Assembly: GCA_010093605.1 (NCBI GenBank)
Contig: MU004188.1
Coordinates: 685,673 to 749,672, forward strand
Length of the DNA stretch: 64,000 nucleotides
From: Lophium mytilinum
Taxonomy: Eukaryota
Direction of reading: 5' to 3'
Part shown: piece after piece, positions 10,372-57,963 of the stretch
How the letters are laid out: each line of letters starts with the position of its first letter
How positions within the stretch are numbered: the first letter of the stretch is position 1
Translations under genes and position numbers: made by a program
Notes under the pieces: model-generated
What the model was told of the DNA's origin: nothing
Database searches by the model: none
What the model saw: only the letters and a program-made list of their open reading frames with translations

Positions 10372-11926
10372 ATGCCTCCCAAGAAGGCCGTGAAGGAGGA
10401 GAAGATTCTGCTGGGCAGGCCGGGCAACAGCTTGAAGAGTGGCATCGTATGTAGGAAACCATATCCGCAGATGTTTCAAGTCCTTACCCTGACAGTGATT
10501 TCAGGTTGGCCTGGCGAACGTCGGAAAGTCCACGCTGTTCCAAGCCATCACGAAGTGTCATCTTGGTAACCCTGCCGTAAGTCTTCACTGCCCACAGCAT
10601 TTGCGCAACCAGCTGACCGGCGTGGCAGAACTTTCCCTATGCTACCATCGACCCTGAAGAAGCTCGTGTCATTGTGCCCGATGAGCGATTCGACTGGCTA
10701 GTCGACCACTACAAGCCCAAATCTGTCGTGCCCGCCAACTTGACCGTCTACGATATCGCCGGTCTAACGCGAGGCGCTTCAACTGGAGCTGGTCTTGGCA
10801 ACGCTTTCTTGTCGCACATTCGTGCCGTCGATGCCATCTTCCAGGTCGTGAGATGCTTCGACGATGCCGAGATCATCCACGTTGAGGGTGACGTAGACCC
10901 CATCCGCGACTTGGAGATCATCAGCGACGAACTCCGGATCAAGGACATCGAGTTCACGGAGAAGGCTCATGAGGCAATTGTCAAGCAGACCCGGAGAGGT
11001 GGCCAGAGCCTGGAGATGAAGAAGCTTAAGGAGGAGCAAGCTACCATCGAGAGGATCTTGGAGATGCTCAAGGACGGCAAAGACGTCCGGAAAGGCAACT
11101 GGAGCCCGAAAGAGGTAAGCACTGAGATTTCCATCTGCACATCCCACCGAACCCCTTGCCATATGATGACAAAGAGCGATTGCTCTATAATCCCAGCTCT
11201 CTAATGGCCTCACGTACGCGTAGAGGCTACTTGATTAGAAGTCCAAACACTGATTTGCAACCATTCATACAAACATAGTCTCGTATATCGGTAGTAGCAC
11301 TCCGCTAATACATGATCTTTAGGTCGAGGTCATCAACCCTCTCTTCCTTCTTACAGCTAAGCCTGTTGTCTACCTCATCAACCTCAGCGAGAAGGACTAC
11401 ATTCGCCAGAAGAACAAGCACCTTCCCAAGATCGCGCAATGGATCAAGGAGAACGCGCCAGGCGACCCAATCATCCCCATCTCTGTCTGCTTCGAAGAGC
11501 GTCTGTCGCGATTCGAGACCCAGGCCGAGGTCGACGAAGAGTGCAAGACCATTGGCGCGAAATCTGGCCTTCCTAAGGTCATTGTGACCATGCGAAAGGT
11601 TCTCAATCTCGGCAGCTTCTTCACGACTGGTACGGATGAAGTGCGGCAATGGACATTACGCAACGGGACCAAGGCTCCTCAAGCTGCTGGTGTCATTCAC
11701 GGAGGTAAGATGTGCCATAAATTCAGACATTACTCTATATACTGACACAATCGTAGACTTCGAGAAGACCTTCATTCAAGTGATTGTCTACAACTTCAAC
11801 GTGTTGAAGGAGGAGGGCGACGAAGCTACGGTGAAGGCCAAGGGCAAGGTGCTGACCAAGGGCAAGGACTACATTGTGGAGGACGGTGATATTCTGCTCA
11901 TTAAAGCCGGAGCGGCAAAGGCCTAG
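10372..11926 (+). CDS. OLA1: Obg-like ATPase 1 (YchF/Ola1)
   Basis: [12 protein letters not shown] (split by an intron), [24 protein letters not shown] and [11 protein letters not shown] motifs; introns start near 10448, 10577, 11115 and 11706. Confidence 0.97.
11156..11260 (+). ncRNA. Intronic box C/D snoRNA, probable snR69 orthologue (25S Cm2948 guide)
   Basis: Inside the 208-nt OLA1 intron 11115-11322: C box ATGATGA 11163-11169, D' CTAA 11201-11204 preceded by AATCCCAGCTCT, C'-like TTGATTA 11231-11237, D box CTGA 11250-11253, terminal TTGC/GCAA stem. Confidence 0.8.
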
Positions 11927-51900: not shown

Positions 51901-53172
51901 CTTTCTTGACACATCCACAAGACATTGATCTTCGTTCAAAGACGCAGCCTACCTACACATAAGATGTATCACCACACGCAATGCATCGCGACGACTCTAG
52001 AGTTAGAAAAGAGTTTATCCTGTCCATGTTAGACAGATTCTCTCTTGGCCTCGCCAACCTACCTGTTGATGGCTTCACATGACTGGGAGGCTGATGTCTT
52101 GGAGAAGGGAAGGAGAGTCAGGTACGCTAGTAGTTCGAGAAAGGGTACGCAGTATATCAATGGGGGTATCTTTTTTTCTGCTTTCTCAGGTTTGAAACCT
52201 TATCAGCGGGCTAATTCGCCACGGAAGTTCTTTGGTGGAACCGCTTGACGCGGTTATAGAAATTAAGTTCATCCTATTGGTGACTTTTACACCCACCGTG
52301 AGCCTGCACGGGTCTGAACAAAACAGAAGTCAACTCTGTAGAAGCTATCCCAGCCCTGGTGCAATTATCCTTCAAGATGTCGGTTCTTCAACGATCTAGA
52401 GAACGTTTAAGTCGTTTATATGTGCAACGTTTGTATCGAGTGCACCTTTTATGTGACCCTATTCGTGCGTGCGCCCGACCACACCTATGAATATCCACAG
52501 TTTAGATCCCTGAGGCCGCTCGCGCAGCTCGACGCTTTCATGAAAGCTACTTTTCGAAAGCACGAAGGATGCTGAGTGATGAGCATCCCATGCCCGAGGG
52601 CCGTCAATGAAGCACTCAGGACAAAGTTCTGGTAATCCTTTCAGGCAAATGTATGATACAGCTCGGCGAGTGTTGTCAGTGGACCTGCGACATGGGGTCT
52701 TAGATTGAGCCACAGATCAGGCTCCAAGAGTGTGAGTCAATCGTCGGAGTAAACGGGAAGAAGCAAACAACCAAGCAAATCCAAGCAAGCTAACAATCAC
52801 TCTGCCTCAAAGATGCTAGAGGACCAATCCAAACCTGACTTCTAATTAGGCAGATTAAATCAGACTCGTCCAAATACCAGAAGTTGCATCGCTCGTTTGT
52901 TAGCAAATACAGTGCGCCAAAGACAAAGAACTGCTACACCTCCTGTTCTCCTGGGCTGCTCCATCGAACGTGCCTGCACTACAAATAGTATCGTGGACTC
53001 ACATCATTCGTGACCATGGTGCGTACCATGGTTCGCCCCCGGTGAGCCGTGACTCATCTCCAACCACGACCCAAGTATTTAATTATCAAGATATCCTTAT
53101 TTTCTACCCCCACACAATACTCAACTCACTCACCTAAGACACCCCACACAAATCACCCCCTATCCCGCCACC

Positions 53173-53925
53173 ATGCCGCCCCCAAAACCCCACCAACGCA
53201 CCTCCAAAACCCCCGCCCCAAACCCCCCCACCGAAAGCCCCAACTCCACCCTCTTCTTCTACATGCCCGACGAAAAACCCTACGGCCTCTTCTGCCAATG
53301 GCACCCCTCCCCCTTCACCGTCTCCACCTCCGCGCTCGTCTGGCTGCTCACCGAAGGCCCCCAACCCCCCTCCTTTTCCGACACTACCACAATGATAAAC
53401 GGCGAGCCGGCTGACCCCCTCGTCGCTGCCTCAAGGGAGCTACCCATTCTTGCCACTAGCAAAATAAACTTCAACTGCGCCGAGCAGTTCATGATGTTCG
53501 CGAAAGCGTTGTACTTCAGCGACTTCCGCACCGCCGTACGGATCATGGATTCGAAATCGCCGAAAGAGCAGCAGGCGCTCGGCGCGGCCGTTGCAGGGTT
53601 CTCGTCGGAGCGGTGGGGGCATGTGAAGGCGGGGCATGAGCGGATGGTGAAGGAGCGGGTGGTGGAGCAGGGGAATTATTGCAAGTTTACGCAGAATCGC
53701 GCGTTTAGGGAGGTGTTGCTGGGGACGGGGGAGCGGGAGCTGGCGGAGGCGGGGAGTAAGGATCGCACGTGGGGGATTGGGTATACGGCGAAGAACGCGG
53801 AGCGGTATAGGAGTTATTGGGGACAGAATTTGTTGGGGAAGTGCTTGATGAGGGCTAGGGGGTGGATTAGGGAGGATGTTGCGAAGAGGGAGGAGAGTAG
53901 AGGGGGAGGTGGTACCAAGAGATAG
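53173..53925 (+). CDS. NADAR (YbiA/DUF1768) family protein
   Basis: Intronless; FCQWHPS, AEQFMMFAKA, NYCKFTQN, LLGTG.RELAEA, DRTWGIG and WGQNLLG motifs. Confidence 0.92.
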   Translation: MPPPKPHQRTSKTPAPNPPTESPNSTLFFYMPDEKPYGLFCQWHPSPFTVSTSALVWLLTEGPQPPSFSDTTTMINGEPADPLVAASRELPILATSKINFNCAEQFMMFAKALYFSDFRTAVRIMDSKSPKEQQALGAAVAGFSSERWGHVKAGHERMVKERVVEQGNYCKFTQNRAFREVLLGTGERELAEAGSKDRTWGIGYTAKNAERYRSYWGQNLLGKCLMRARGWIREDVAKREESRGGGGTKR

Positions 53926-54078
53926 GATAGGGAAACGACATGCCTTTCGTTCTAGCTATAGCGATTCTGTTATATGATGCTAGACTTCGCTTGACGACTT
54001 GACGAGATTTTGGTTCTTACGTTAGTGAATGAACGCCCCAGCAATCACATATAATGCCCATTATTTCCCCCGACTCTC

Positions 54079-54198
54079 GCCCTAAGGGGTGTCTGCCTGT
54101 TGAGCGTCTGACCAGCGAACTCATTCGGGCATTCGGTCATATAGTAAAAACCGCCTTGGCAAGGGGCGGTATTCGTAGGGCTTCGGCCTGAGCTTTTT
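54079..54198 (+). ncRNA. Putative Pol III structured ncRNA, array unit 1 (most diverged)
   Basis: CATATAA at -31, 5' hairpin GCCCTAAGGGGT, CCGCC/GGCGG hairpin, GGC-TTCG-GCC hairpin, T5, downstream GGTTCGATAC at 54219; no clear A box. Confidence 0.55.
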
Positions 54199-54461
54199 GT
54201 TCCCCCTTACGGGTTCAGGGTTCGATACGCGTGCCCGCCAGGTATTTCTTTTTGTCGAATGCTTTCTTGGTCACCACGTGATGGCCGGGGGACTACAACT
54301 TTCACTTGAACGACGTGCATGGTTTCCAGGCTTGTGTGCTGCCATTGAACGGGAACAAGATGGAGAATGTACGTACATACATACCTGACACTTCTCCGCC
54401 GTGTGAGTATATCAAGTCGAAATACACAAGTAGATATACGCCACTAATCACCGCCACCTTC

Positions 54462-54603
54462 GCCTTTCGGGGCCTGCTCACTTTCGAGTGATGCAGTGGG
54501 GTCGGGCCTATGTGGGCTGGGCTCCAACAACGACCGAAAGGTCGACAAAAAACCCCTTTGGGTGCACCAGGGGGTTTTTAGTAAGGCTTCGGCCTGAGTT
54601 TTT
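54462..54603 (+). ncRNA. Putative Pol III structured ncRNA, array unit 2
   Basis: TAGATATA at -31, GCCTTTCGGGGC, TGATGCAGTGG, conserved 3' hairpins, T5, GATTCGATCC at 54613. Confidence 0.65.
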
Positions 54604-54737
54604 ACTGTCGAGGATTCGATCCGCATGAGCGAGTAGATTGGATGTTCCTTTTTGCTAACGGGATTTATTGCATCATATCTTTTTTCGGCCTGTGGAACTA
54701 TCCAGGTATATATACACTTCAAGCCACCGCTACCTTC

Positions 54738-54873
54738 GCCTTTCGGGGCCTGCACACTTTCGAGTGGCGCAGTGGGTCGGGTGCAATTCCACTCAGCTCT
54801 GTCGACCGAGAGGTCGTAAAAAACTCCTTGCGTGCACCAAGGGGTTTTTAGTAAGGCTTCGGCCTGAGTTTTT
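54738..54873 (+). ncRNA. Putative Pol III structured ncRNA, array unit 3
   Basis: TATATATA at -31, GCCTTTCGGGGC, consensus A box TGGCGCAGTGG, conserved 3' hairpins, T5, GGTTCGACGC at 54890, then T8. Confidence 0.7.
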
Positions 54874-55016
54874 GGCTATCTCATAGGAGGGTTCGACGCG
54901 CGTAAGCGGGTCCGCAGTTTCTTTTTTTTCGCCAACTGGATATCTCACATCTCATCTTTTTTAGCTGCATGTAGAAGTATCCAGGTATATAGACACTCCA
55001 ATTCGCTGCTGCCCTC

Positions 55017-55111
55017 GCCCTACGGGGCACCACTTGCGCAATGACGCAGTGACCCGAAGAACCCCTTGCGTGCAACAGGGGGTTTTCGTAGGGCTTCGGC
55101 CTGAGCTTTTT
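55017..55111 (+). ncRNA. Putative Pol III structured ncRNA, array unit 4
   Basis: TATATAG at -31, GCCCTACGGGGC, TGACGCAGTGA, conserved 3' hairpins, T5, GGTTCGATCC at 55133. Confidence 0.65.
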
Positions 55112-55251
55112 GCTCTTTCAAAGAAGGGATAGGGTTCGATCCGCATGAGCGGACTGGTATCTTCTTTTTGCGGATTCGGATATCTTACCCTTCATTTCCC
55201 TGCTTGTGCAACTATTCAAGTATATAGACGCTCCGATTCGCCGCCGCCTTC

Positions 55252-55364
55252 GCCGTTCGGGGCCTACAGCCGATTTTGGTGCAGTCATGCGAGAGAAATC
55301 CCGCCTTCAGAAAGCCCCTTGGGTGCAACAAGGGGTTTTCGTAGGGCTTCGGCCCGAAGTTTTT
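55252..55364 (+). ncRNA. Putative Pol III structured ncRNA, array unit 5
   Basis: TATATAG at -31, GCCGTTCGGGGC, TGGTGCAGTCA, conserved 3' hairpins, T5, AGTTCGAGAT at 55383. Confidence 0.6.
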
Positions 55365-55543
55365 GCTCTTCTGAATACCGCGAGTTCGAGATGTAGACGA
55401 GTGAGAAAAGGTTCTTCTTTTTTGCAGATAGATAGAATTTTAACTAAAAGAGTATAAGAGATAAAGAGTTTAAGAGAGAGTATGAGCCACCATGCTTACT
55501 CATACTGTGAAGTCTTTGATTTCAATATCGTACCACGCATCTC

Positions 55544-57963
55544 TCAATGAATGCCCTCCAAAAACGCAACCAACCGCTTCTTAATCACCACCCCAACCAA
55601 CGCCCCAGTCCCCTCCTCCACCACACACAGGTGCCGCAGACCCAGCTTCCCAAACATCTCCACCGCATACTCCACCGGCGCCGCCGCGCACAGCGTGATC
55701 GGCGTGCGATCCACGAACGGCGTGAGGTCCATCACCGTCTCCGCCTCATGCTCTTCCTCATGCGGACCACCCAACAGCCTCACCTCCGCATCAGCCGCGT
55801 ACACCGAGCCCAGCGCGTCCGGCTTACTGGAGAGCCCAAACGCGAGCTCGCCTTCCGCAATGTAGCCCTGCAGCATCTGCACGCTCGTTCCGGGAAGCGC
55901 CTGCACGAGCACGAGGCCCGCGTCCATAAGGCCCCTCGCGTGAAGCTGATCGAGCTTCTTTTGCAGCAGCACGCGAGGGACTTTGTTGCTCGGCGGCACT
56001 ACGACCGTGATCTCGTCCATTGTCTGCTTCGGCGGTACGAGTTCCTGCACTAACCGACTCTCTTTTCGTACGAGTAGCGTTGCGTGATCGGCGTCGAGAA
56101 ACGGGTGTCCTAGTACCGTCTGCGCGAGGTCGTATACTCCCTCCGATGAGATGGCGTCGGCGACCCATTTCGCGACTAGGATTGCGATCATGTGTGGGAC
56201 GATGTACTCGAGTTCGCCGGTGAGCTCGAACATGATTACGCAGAGGGAGATGGTCATGCGGGAGACGCCGGCGAGGAAGGCGGCTGCGCCTACCATCGCG
56301 AAGATGCCGGGGGAGATGGTGCCGATAGATTGGCCTAGCAGGCGGCCAAAGAGAGCGCCAGCGTCGAGGGCGGGGATGATCACGCCCGAGGGGACTTTGC
56401 AGCCGAAGGTGATGATCGTGAGGATGAGTTTGGTGAGGGTGCCGTAAGTGAGCCAGCCGACGTAGACCCAGCGCGCGGAAGTGCTTGAGGCAGCGTCGGC
56501 TTCGTGTGTGCAGACCCAGGAGCTGGCTGACTTGGGGGAACGACAGTCTACGAGGAGGTTCTTGATGATTGTGTCGCCTGGTTCTCGCGTCAGGGGATTG
56601 GGGTACTGAAGTAGAGTGGTGGCGAGAACGACGAGGAAGACTTCGAAAACGGGGTGGTTCTTGATGAGGCCGTAGCTGCGGAACCATTTCGACCACTTGA
56701 AGTTTGCTTTGCAGAAGATGCCACCGAAGATGCCGCCCGCGATTCCTAGCACTACGAAGACGACGTAGTGGATTGGTGAGTATGAAGTGCCGTAATTAGT
56801 CTCGAAGAGAACGAGTTTTCCTGTGCCCGTGGGATTAAGTGCTTTCAAGACCATCGCTGCGAAGAGTGAGCAGAGAAAAGCGCGCCAGAGGACTTTGCGT
56901 GGGAAGTATGTGCTGATTTCTTCGTAGCTGAATAAGACGCCGCCGATAGGTGCACCAAAAGCGACGCTGAGGCCTGATGCACACGCAGCGGAGAGTAGCT
57001 CTCGCATTTTGCGGCCATTCTCTCGGTATTTGGGAAACCAATTGCCAACAATGTAGCCCACGCAGGTAGAGATATGCACGAAAGGACCTTCTTTGCCTAG
57101 ACACATGCCTGTAGCAACGGCGAAGATGGCACCGAAGCCTTTGACAACGAGAACCTTCAGGTCCAGGAAGTTGGGGATCACAAAGCCGGAGAGAATGGTC
57201 TTGATCTCTGGGATACCGGAGCCAGCGGCCATGTACATCGATTTCCCAGCCGGCTGCGATTTGGACTTTGTGTCGTGAGGCTTGCCTGCCTTCCCTGGTG
57301 CTACAGCTGGCAACGAGCTTTTCGTGAGCATAGTTGCGCTGGAGCTGATAAGGCCGAAAAGCAACGCCCATGCTACGTAGATGGCAAATGAGGCCCAGTA
57401 ATTCTCCGACCATAGTTGGAAATGCTTGCATTGGTCTCCAATCTCGGATTGAATTCCAAGGAGAGGGGTCTTATCCTCGCAGCATGCTTCGCGATTTAGC
57501 AGTGGATTCCTGGTGCAGTAGCCCAACTTCCAGTCCGAGACAGTTGCTTCGGCCACATCCACGACAAACGCTACACAAGCCGTAAGCGTTCCTATAATCA
57601 TCACGGCAATCCATCCAGAAGAGGCTTCGAAGAGAGAAACGAGCTCGTAGCGGAGGCCTTTCCGAGATTTGATATAGCGGAACCGGTACGAATCTTTTAC
57701 CTATGAACTATCAATGCCTGCGAGTTTGGACAGCGGGAAGAGATTACCAAATCATGTAACCAGTCAATGGTCGTATAGTCGTTGTACGGCAATCTTTCCC
57801 CAACCGTACTGCCGGCCATTTGCTGCTCTTCCTTCGTAACAGCAGACGAGATGATAGACTGAGCCTCGTCCTCATGCTGCAGATGGCTCAATCTGCGATT
57901 GTTCGCAGCATGGGAGAGGAGATGCGTCCGCTCTGTTGCGGATTCGACGTCCGTAGAAGGCAT
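55544..57963 (-). CDS. CLC family chloride channel/antiporter
   Basis: DYTTIDW, GSGIPEIK, GKEGP, FGAPIGGVLF, GVIIP and C-terminal CBS motifs; intron ~57701-57748. Confidence 0.97.

Follow-up and report, generated by a model that had tools for sequence, protein, structure and literature searches.

What occupies the 1.6-kb gap between two convergent genes of the fungus Lophium mytilinum, a decaying repeat or a set of genes in its own right? The gap lies in a stretch of 64,000 nucleotides (nt) of contig MU004188.1 (assembly GCA_010093605.1, positions 685,673 to 749,672 of the forward strand), which is called the window here and whose numbering is used throughout. It is bounded by the 3' ends of a NADAR gene (53173-53925, plus strand) and of an open reading frame (ORF) for a CLC channel (55544-57604, minus strand), and it holds a tandem array of five related units, each with a hairpin-rich 3' module. 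The original prediction had read compensatory base changes in this module as selection on RNA structure, and had taken the module for a conserved protein-binding scaffold rather than neutral satellite DNA. Judged from the sequence, and with a little more confidence than doubt, we read the array as five paralogous plus-strand genes of RNA polymerase III (Pol III) type, which would encode hairpin-rich RNAs of 100-150 nt from an undescribed family, with a promoter like that of SNR6, the U6 small nuclear RNA (snRNA) gene of Saccharomyces cerevisiae, and with a 3' module that would stop transcription and clamp the 3' end. It is probable that we are dealing with functional plus-strand small-RNA genes of one kind or another.

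The five head-to-tail units (U1-U5) were found by a direct-repeat search and alignment, and the starts of their 3' motifs are 405, 271, 237 and 253 nt apart. The 23-nt 3' motif (GTARGGCTTCGGCCYGANNTTTT) occurs once per unit (n = 5), with an expectation of 0 from 100 shuffles. Tandem Repeats Finder (TRF), when run on the window, did not detect the array, its units having diverged too far from one another. All five units share one order of elements, namely a TATA-like octamer, a 5' hairpin, an A-box-like motif (held by four of the five and lacking in U1), a variable middle, the 3' module, a run of five T (T5), a B-box and a second T run (Table 1). The first hairpin has the form GCCY-UNNG-GGGC, with the loop UUCG in U2 and U3 and UACG in U4, while the middle comprises two extra hairpins in U2 and U3 (including those with GAAA and GAGA loops), none in U4, and sequences of their own in U1 and U5. 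The mean pairwise column identity was 0.66 for the TATA element, 0.72-0.82 for the 5' module, 0.72-0.94 for the 3' module and 0.79 for the B-box, compared with 0.13-0.4 for the middle and the spacers. The B-box is a conserved island past the T run.

Table 1 Features of the five-unit array. The predicted RNAs start at the purine at -4 of TCGCC and end at the T5 run, both ends being inferred; H1-H4 are successive hairpins.
Unit	Feature	Positions	Strand	Remarks
U1-U5	Whole array, units in tandem	54040-55440	+	Repeat search and alignment
U1	TATA-like octamer CATATAAT	54048-54055	+	29 nt ahead of TCGCC
U1	Predicted RNA, about 126 nt	54073-54198	+	Middle unlike other units; no A-box-like motif
U1	3' module	54146-54198	+	Long hairpin 54146-54174; GGGC-UUCG-GCCU 54178-54189; T5 54194-54198
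U1	B-box GGTTCGATAC	54219-54228	+	20 nt past T run
U1	Second T run, T5	54249-54253	+	
U2	TATA-like octamer TAGATATA	54431-54438	+	At -29
U2	Predicted RNA, 148 nt	54456-54603	+	H1 GCCU-UUCG-GGGC, H2 CACU-UUCG-AGUG, H3, H4 CGACC-GAAA-GGUCG, 3' module
U2	A-box-like motif TGATGCAGTGG	54489-54499	+	9/11 to TRGCNNAGTGG
U2	3' module	54547-54603	+	Long hairpin 54547-54579 (3' strand ending in internal T5 54575-54579); AGGC-UUCG-GCCU 54584-54595; T5 54599-54603
U2	B-box GATTCGATCC	54613-54622	+	9 nt past T run
U2	Second T run, T5	54649-54653	+	
U3	TATA box TATATATA	54707-54714	+	At -29
U3	Predicted RNA, 142 nt	54732-54873	+	U2-like hairpin series; H4 loop GAGA instead of GAAA
U3	A-box TGGCGCAGTGG	54765-54775	+	Only plus-strand match in the window to strict TRGCNNAGTGG
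U3	3' module	54818-54873	+	Long hairpin 54818-54849 (internal T5 54845-54849); AGGC-UUCG-GCCU 54854-54865; T5 54869-54873
U3	B-box GGTTCGACGC	54890-54899	+	16 nt past T run
U3	Second T run, T8	54922-54929	+	
U4	TATA box TATATAGA	54986-54993	+	At -29
U4	Predicted RNA, 101 nt	55011-55111	+	Minimal form: H1 GCCC-UACG-GGGC, H2, directly 3' module
U4	A-box-like motif TGACGCAGTGA	55042-55052	+	9/11
U4	3' module	55056-55111	+	Long hairpin 55056-55087; GGGC-UUCG-GCCU 55091-55102; T5 55107-55111
U4	B-box GGTTCGATCC	55133-55142	+	21 nt past T run
U4	Second T run, T5	55165-55169	+	
U5	TATA box TATATAGA	55221-55228	+	At -29; same octamer as U4
U5	Predicted RNA, 119 nt	55246-55364	+	Middle unique to U5
U5	A-box-like motif TGGTGCAGTCA	55277-55287	+	8/11
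U5	3' module	55310-55364	+	Long hairpin 55310-55340 (base G-C); GGGC-UUCG-GCCC 55344-55355; T5 55360-55364
U5	B-box-like motif AGTTCGAGAT	55383-55392	+	GTTCGA core retained; 18 nt past T run
U5	Second T run, T6	55418-55423	+	

The signals around and within the units are of the kind expected for Pol III. The A/T-rich octamer stands exactly 29 nt ahead of TCGCC in all five units, and a purine at -4 is likewise invariable. TGRYGCAGT is present in U2-U5, and the looser pattern T[AG][AG][CT]GCAGT has five matches on the plus strand of the 64 kb, four of which fall within the array, 56-58 nt from the TATA element where measured. The UUCG hairpin is followed by a T5 run in every unit. The consensus sequences are TRGCNNAGTGG for the A-box and GGTTCGANNC for the B-box. 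A B-box pattern, G[GA]TTCGA..[CG], has nine matches on the plus strand of the window, four of them in the array (U1-U4) and none on the array's minus strand; U5 keeps the GTTCGA core only, and these motifs lie 9-21 nt past the T run. A second run of 5-8 T then follows about 30 nt past the B-box (5/5 units). According to one source (PMC5855946), SNR6 has a TATA box upstream, an A block that is internal, and a B block that follows downstream of the coding region, A and B being bridged by TFIIIC. Because TATA, A block, terminator and downstream B block follow one another in the array as they do in SNR6, we read its units as Pol III-type genes.

In such a system, each unit would be a plus-strand transcription unit of its own, with a TATA box about 25 nt ahead of the start, an internal A-box and an oligo-T terminator, while the B-box just past the terminator would be the TFIIIC site and the second T run a fail-safe. 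The 3' module would provide a constant RNA 3' end, built from a 12-bp hairpin with an A run and a U run at its base, the three bases GUA as linker, the C(UUCG)G hairpin as clamp and, last, the U tail; its place as the last element before the T5 run, with the B-box next, suggests the terminating and 3'-end-protecting part of a Pol III-type gene. Its likely task would be to ensure a clean stop of the polymerase in a head-to-tail row, where read-through would enter the next promoter, and it would also leave a compact, exonuclease-resistant 3' end with a UUUU-OH tail such as La or Lsm proteins bind. A 3-bp YUC/GAR helix, together with the constant hairpin at the 5' end, would close the molecule, with 0-2 unit-specific hairpins in the middle. 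That the units are transcribed, by which polymerase, where their RNAs end and what the module does is what we infer here, and the La-tail step is borrowed from general Pol III biology.

How well defined is the 3' module? The sequence features named in the original prediction were all found in place. The long stem is ACCGCCTT...GGGGCGGT in U1 (54150-54170) and ACCCCTT...GGGGGT in U2 and U4, and its base is AAAAA(A)/TTTTT in U2-U3, GAAGAA/TTTTC in U4 and GAAAG/TTTTC in U5. The outer pair of the GGC-UUCG-GCC hairpin (columns 42/53) is A-U in two units, G-U in two and G-C in one, and the extra hairpins are CACT-TTCG-AGTG (54479/54755) and CGACC-GAAA-GGTCG with its variant CGACC-GAGA-GGTCG (54531/54803). 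Modelled as a 12-bp hairpin plus a 4-bp UUCG hairpin, the module has standard pairs in 90% of 80 cells, and a control in which one strand was slid by one column lowered this to 75% and 62%. The fit is imperfect at the base of the long hairpin (columns 7/37), where U1 and U4 have A.C, so that two of the five units are unpaired, and the G...C base of U4 requires a bulge. A covariance model of the module retrieved from the 64 kb only the five array sites, at 66-83 bits on the plus strand and 18-24 bits at the same places on the minus strand; no sixth copy was found in the window, the next plus-strand matches scoring at most 11 bits. RNAalifold further predicted the 3-bp YUC/GAR helix, which joins the 5' end with the bases just ahead of the U tail and which reads U.G twice, C-G twice and U-A once.

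Other pairings and origins were also considered for this region. In U4, GCCCUACG (55017-55024), the first hairpin's 5' strand, is perfectly complementary to CGUAGGGC (55087-55094), a segment that takes in the GUA linker together with the UUCG hairpin's 5' strand; either an alternative 5'-3' conformer or a side effect of having two GCCC/GGGC stems could lie behind this. In general form, a long-range helix that pairs GCCYU in the 5' hairpin with ARGGC in the 3' hairpin fits four of the five units, with 8 perfect bp in U4 and matching Y/R variation, and was dropped because it follows automatically from the two GCCC/GGGC stems and involves one evolutionary change only. Mutation of the repeat-induced point (RIP) type as the source of the A-U/G-U/G-C series was given up as well; many transversions are among the differences between U2 and U3.

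A further question is whether selection has acted on the plus-strand RNA. To compare the strands, hairpins with a stem of at least 4 bp and a 4-nt loop were counted and their loops scored as UNCG or GNRA. The results showed such loops in 12 of 39 hairpins on the plus strand of the array, in 56 of 1128 elsewhere on the plus strand of the window (Fisher 6.5e-7) and in one of 42 on the array's minus strand; the p values overstate independence because the copies are paralogous and stand for about four independent hairpin types, not twelve. Despite this kinship, the strand asymmetry is clear. G.U pairs, which become A.C on the opposite strand, account for 10 of the 72 paired cells of the 3' module. 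Folding of the plus strand was favoured over that of the minus strand in U1 (-40 against -30 kcal/mol), U2 (-69 against -53) and U3 (-51 against -42), an advantage of 9-16 kcal/mol that is not seen in U4-U5. In the closest pair of units, U2 and U3, no substitution disrupts any of the 45 predicted pairs, one of which is lost to a gap, and H3 has two neighbouring pairs with both bases altered, one from C-G to U-A and the other from C-G to G-C; this is supportive and not independent evidence, because the structure was predicted from the same two sequences. Moreover, the even decay expected of a neutral satellite is not what the array displays, given its conserved islands against drifted spacers and its one-sided tetraloops (12/39 on the plus strand and 1/42 on the minus strand). 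The claim of a selected RNA structure rather than a satellite thus draws support from the tetraloops, the G.U pairs and the conservation islands, whereas the covariation argument offered for it is statistically empty at n = 5. It is probably right, for reasons other than covariation, and the evidence for selection on RNA shape is real but thin.

The predicted RNAs could be assigned to no known family. Lax scans (E<=10) and a gathering scan of the array with Rfam release 15 gave no credible match: all rows had E>=1.8 and 10-17 bits, compared with gathering thresholds of 43-113, and these chance-level rows were DLEU2_6, mir-210, mir-1324, sno_ncR3, malK-III, His_leader, flavi_FSE, rsmX and MIR2619. 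U6 snRNA was rejected, as its model, which has the ACAGAGA and AGC elements, gave no match at E<=10, and so were tRNA or tRNA-like genes, for which ARAGORN reported none in the window, Rfam had no tRNA match, and the flanks of TTCGA form no T stem by eye. The same holds for self-cleaving ribozymes (hammerhead, twister, hepatitis delta virus-like and others), without an Rfam match at E<=10, which leaves the ribozyme idea unsupported. Three further resemblances were discarded: to loop 1 of U5 snRNA (GCCUUU is not conserved, with GCCCUA and GCCGUU in its place), to a 7-nt anticodon-like loop (there is no U at position 2) and to the hammerhead core (GUGAUG is not conserved). A search of open papers by motif strings and keywords listed none on such a fungal RNA family, which may nevertheless have been described earlier without a name.

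To see whether the family extends beyond the array, contigs from sequencing runs were inspected, other loci being visible through contig ends. In contigs of the probable source run, the 35-36-nt 3' module recurs with 2-3 differences in at least three other places with unlike flanks. The upstream flanks of three such copies (two in the source run and one in a second run) all show an A run followed by a pyrimidine-rich strand, and the downstream flanks, readable for two copies, one per run, contain GGTTCGAAGC again in one of the two. The family is larger than the array.

Several observations weigh against a Pol III-type family, and the first concerns the covariation itself. Only two of 16 pairs in the module are changed on both sides, which 162 of 500 column shuffles match, so the result is not significant; moreover, the five paralogues represent about three independent lineages (U2 with U3, U4 with U5, and U1), too few for a covariation test. 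The C-G to G-C swap proposed for U1 does hold as a two-sided, pairing-preserving change, but it depends on the register, because U1 has one extra base per strand (8 versus 7), and insertion of a G-C pair is an equally good reading. When the whole RNAs were folded, two of the five units gave notable z-scores (U2 -3.45, U4 -3.51), the other three lying at -0.6 to -1.0. On the promoter side, the A-box is perfect in U3, scores 9/11 in U2 and U4 and 8/11 in U5, and is missing from U1. The A-to-B spacing of 91-125 nt exceeds the 30-90 nt of tRNA genes and falls short of the roughly 200 nt of SNR6, both figures being from PMC5855946. In U2 and U3, the 3' strand of the long hairpin has an internal T5 where U1, U4 and U5 have TATTC or TTTTC, and this could stop Pol III ahead of the UUCG hairpin; the hairpin and its own T5 would then be a back-up stop outside the RNA. 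If read by Pol III, the paralogues may end at different places.

The available read and genome collections add to these reservations. A run guessed to be RNA, among listed runs none of which is on record as RNA, contains contigs identical to 54607-54820 and 55078-55391, at a depth of 3-5 compared with 30-41 on neighbouring genes, and other parts of the array have no contig in it. The first of these contigs includes the spacer and a TATA box, which is unexpected for a clean Pol III unit. As the contigs end at 31-mers shared between units, transcript ends, strand and expression cannot be read from them. No orthologue was found in a metagenome scan with the 23-nt 3' motif, whose single match, in contig L001 (1464-1526), was rejected as a chance relative: it has the exact motif and 35.7 bits with the module model, but the contig looks bacterial, the site is part of a 701-aa ORF and no further feature of the units accompanies it. 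This contig shows how easily shapes of hairpin, UUCG and T run arise by chance. Likewise, a scan of prokaryote genomes with the 3' motif, T run and GTTCGA gave no orthologue and five matches, all in named bacteria and all set aside as chance at 9-20 bits with the module model R1, compared with 66-83 for the units.

Which other explanations, then, could account for the array? The one that survives best, unlikely as it is, takes the units for independent small-RNA genes of RNA polymerase II (Pol II), transcribed from the TATA box as snRNA and small nucleolar RNA (snoRNA) genes are, with the U-rich stretch as an Sm/Lsm-type site and GTTCGA as incidental. The TATA fixed at -29 in all five units would suit such genes, the internal T5 of U2 and U3 would be no obstacle to them, and the spacer-spanning contig in the run guessed to be RNA would fit. 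Between the two hairpins lies GUUUUUAG or GUUUUCGU, placed as an Sm site would be; measured against the consensus RAU4-6GR, however, it has no A before and no G after, and it is predicted to pair with the A run. The Sm-site reading is weak. Independent Pol II genes would also leave unexplained why the GTTCGA core is kept in 5/5 units past the T run, in DNA that is otherwise poorly conserved, and in every unit a run of at least five T directly follows the last hairpin and recurs some 50 nt further on. No Rfam snRNA or snoRNA model matched the array.

It is also rather improbable that the array is a decaying repeat, whether tRNA-derived, like a short interspersed element (SINE) or a local satellite, with promoter-like and hairpin features that are relics and an RNA without function. 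Dispersed copies exist beside the tandem ones, motifs like the A- and B-box are typical of tRNA-derived repeats, U1 is without an A-box and the B-box of U5 is weakened, and the covariation is not significant. Against this, the islands of conservation coincide with promoter, terminator and hairpins while the spacers have drifted to 0.13-0.4, the stable tetraloops stand on one strand only, and the predicted pairs survive every substitution between U2 and U3. Nothing tRNA-like was detected by ARAGORN or by the Rfam tRNA model, and neither an A-rich tail nor a target-site duplication is visible.

Little credence is given to a single long Pol II precursor running across the array, from which small RNAs would be cut as they are in the polycistronic snoRNA clusters of fungi. 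Tandem small-RNA clusters of fungi are usually snoRNA clusters; CUGA stands ahead of the T run in four of the five units, and unit, spacer and unit are covered by the two contigs from the run guessed to be RNA. The ends of these contigs, however, fall at the shared 31-mers and so do not map transcript ends, and every unit has a TATA of its own, at a constant distance, as well as two or three T runs. C/D box snoRNAs, which have a C box RUGAUGA near the 5' end and a D box CUGA near the 3' end, were rejected, since the candidate C box is variable (TGATGC, TGGCGC, TGACGC, TGGTGC) and placed mid-RNA, no terminal stem is formed and no Rfam snoRNA matches in the array, and H/ACA snoRNAs were rejected for want of an ACA or H box pattern; the Rfam snoRNA models are silent in the array, though one matches elsewhere in the window. 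Very improbable, finally, is that the array acts as DNA, as a row of TFIIIC-binding B-boxes (of the extra-TFIIIC type) or of cruciform palindromes forming a boundary between convergent genes: five B-box cores within 1.4 kb, the position between two 3' gene ends and the palindrome GTGCAC in the long-hairpin loop of U2 and U3, which also folds on the minus strand, would agree with it, but the G.U pairs (10/72) and the plus-strand UNCG/GNRA loops are properties of RNA and not of DNA, and TATA, A-box and T runs would be superfluous.

The surroundings of the array were also recorded. The spacer between U1 and U2 (54260-54430) is about 130 nt longer than the others; within it are a short palindromic run, ACGTAC/GTACAT (about 54367-54385), and, at 54403-54414, one more TATA-like sequence, GAGTATATCAAG. 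The product of the NADAR-domain (DUF1768) gene has a proline-rich, low-complexity N-terminus, the gene contains a TRF row at 53141-53213 (period 22), and the nearest named relatives of the protein are from Dothideomycete fungi, with a top identity of 64%. A second contig of the probable source run resembles 53708-53751 with six differences, which suggests a NADAR paralogue elsewhere. The CLC ORF is an open frame of 686 aa (Voltage_CLC, E 6.6e-82; CBS domain weak), with its 3' end towards the array. The sole Rfam match above gathering in the window is the C/D box snoRNA Afu_304 at 11159-11256 on the plus strand (39.1 bits against a threshold of 35), which is consistent with a filamentous ascomycete genome. 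A scan for bacterial promoters and terminators gave two terminator-like sites where 1.9 were expected and was uninformative.

What would a Pol III-type array mean beyond this locus? More tentatively, the units may belong to a lineage-specific Dothideomycete family of Pol III RNAs, absent from Rfam and from the searched literature, with constant ends around a swappable cassette of 0-2 hairpins capped by tetraloops, both clustered and dispersed, which would form the core of a ribonucleoprotein and be a counterpart in kind of Y and vault RNAs. The fungal Pol III transcripts known outside budding and fission yeast are essentially tRNA, 5S, U6, signal recognition particle and RNase P RNA. If the reading of the array as Pol III-type genes is true, a new family would join them, the SNR6-like layout with an external B-box would be used beyond U6, and the five paralogues with their swappable middle would offer a natural dissection of the constant parts. 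If the array is only a decaying repeat, tetraloop and promoter signals can outlast function.

Compared with known systems, the units share their form with bacterial intrinsic terminators, with a G/C-rich hairpin followed by U4-5 twice per unit and an A run ahead of the first hairpin that lends it a bidirectional look, and the chance-level Rfam alignments to His_leader and rsmX fall on the terminator parts of those families; however, the genome is fungal and a role of the hairpins in termination is conjectural here. A T run is enough to stop Pol III in eukaryotes. The polycistronic C/D snoRNA clusters of fungi are similar in placing tandem structured small RNAs between protein genes, and CUGA near the 3' end (4/5) adds to the likeness; they differ in that the array has no conserved C box, terminal stem or Rfam snoRNA match, and has its own TATA and T runs in each unit. 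Vertebrate Y RNA and vault RNA loci also set paralogues of about 100 nt side by side, with their own promoters, a 3' U tail, conserved ends and a variable centre, but Y and vault RNAs close by a long 5'/3' stem where 3 bp are predicted for the array RNAs, and no Rfam Y_RNA or Vault match was obtained. SNR6 itself differs in its product (the array gave no Rfam match to U6) and in being one gene as opposed to five tandem paralogues, and the B-box of the array lies 9-21 nt past the terminator. The array shares with SNR6 the succession of TATA, A block, oligo-T and B block, which is seen in four of the five units, with a perfect A-box in U3 only, and in U1 without an A-box.

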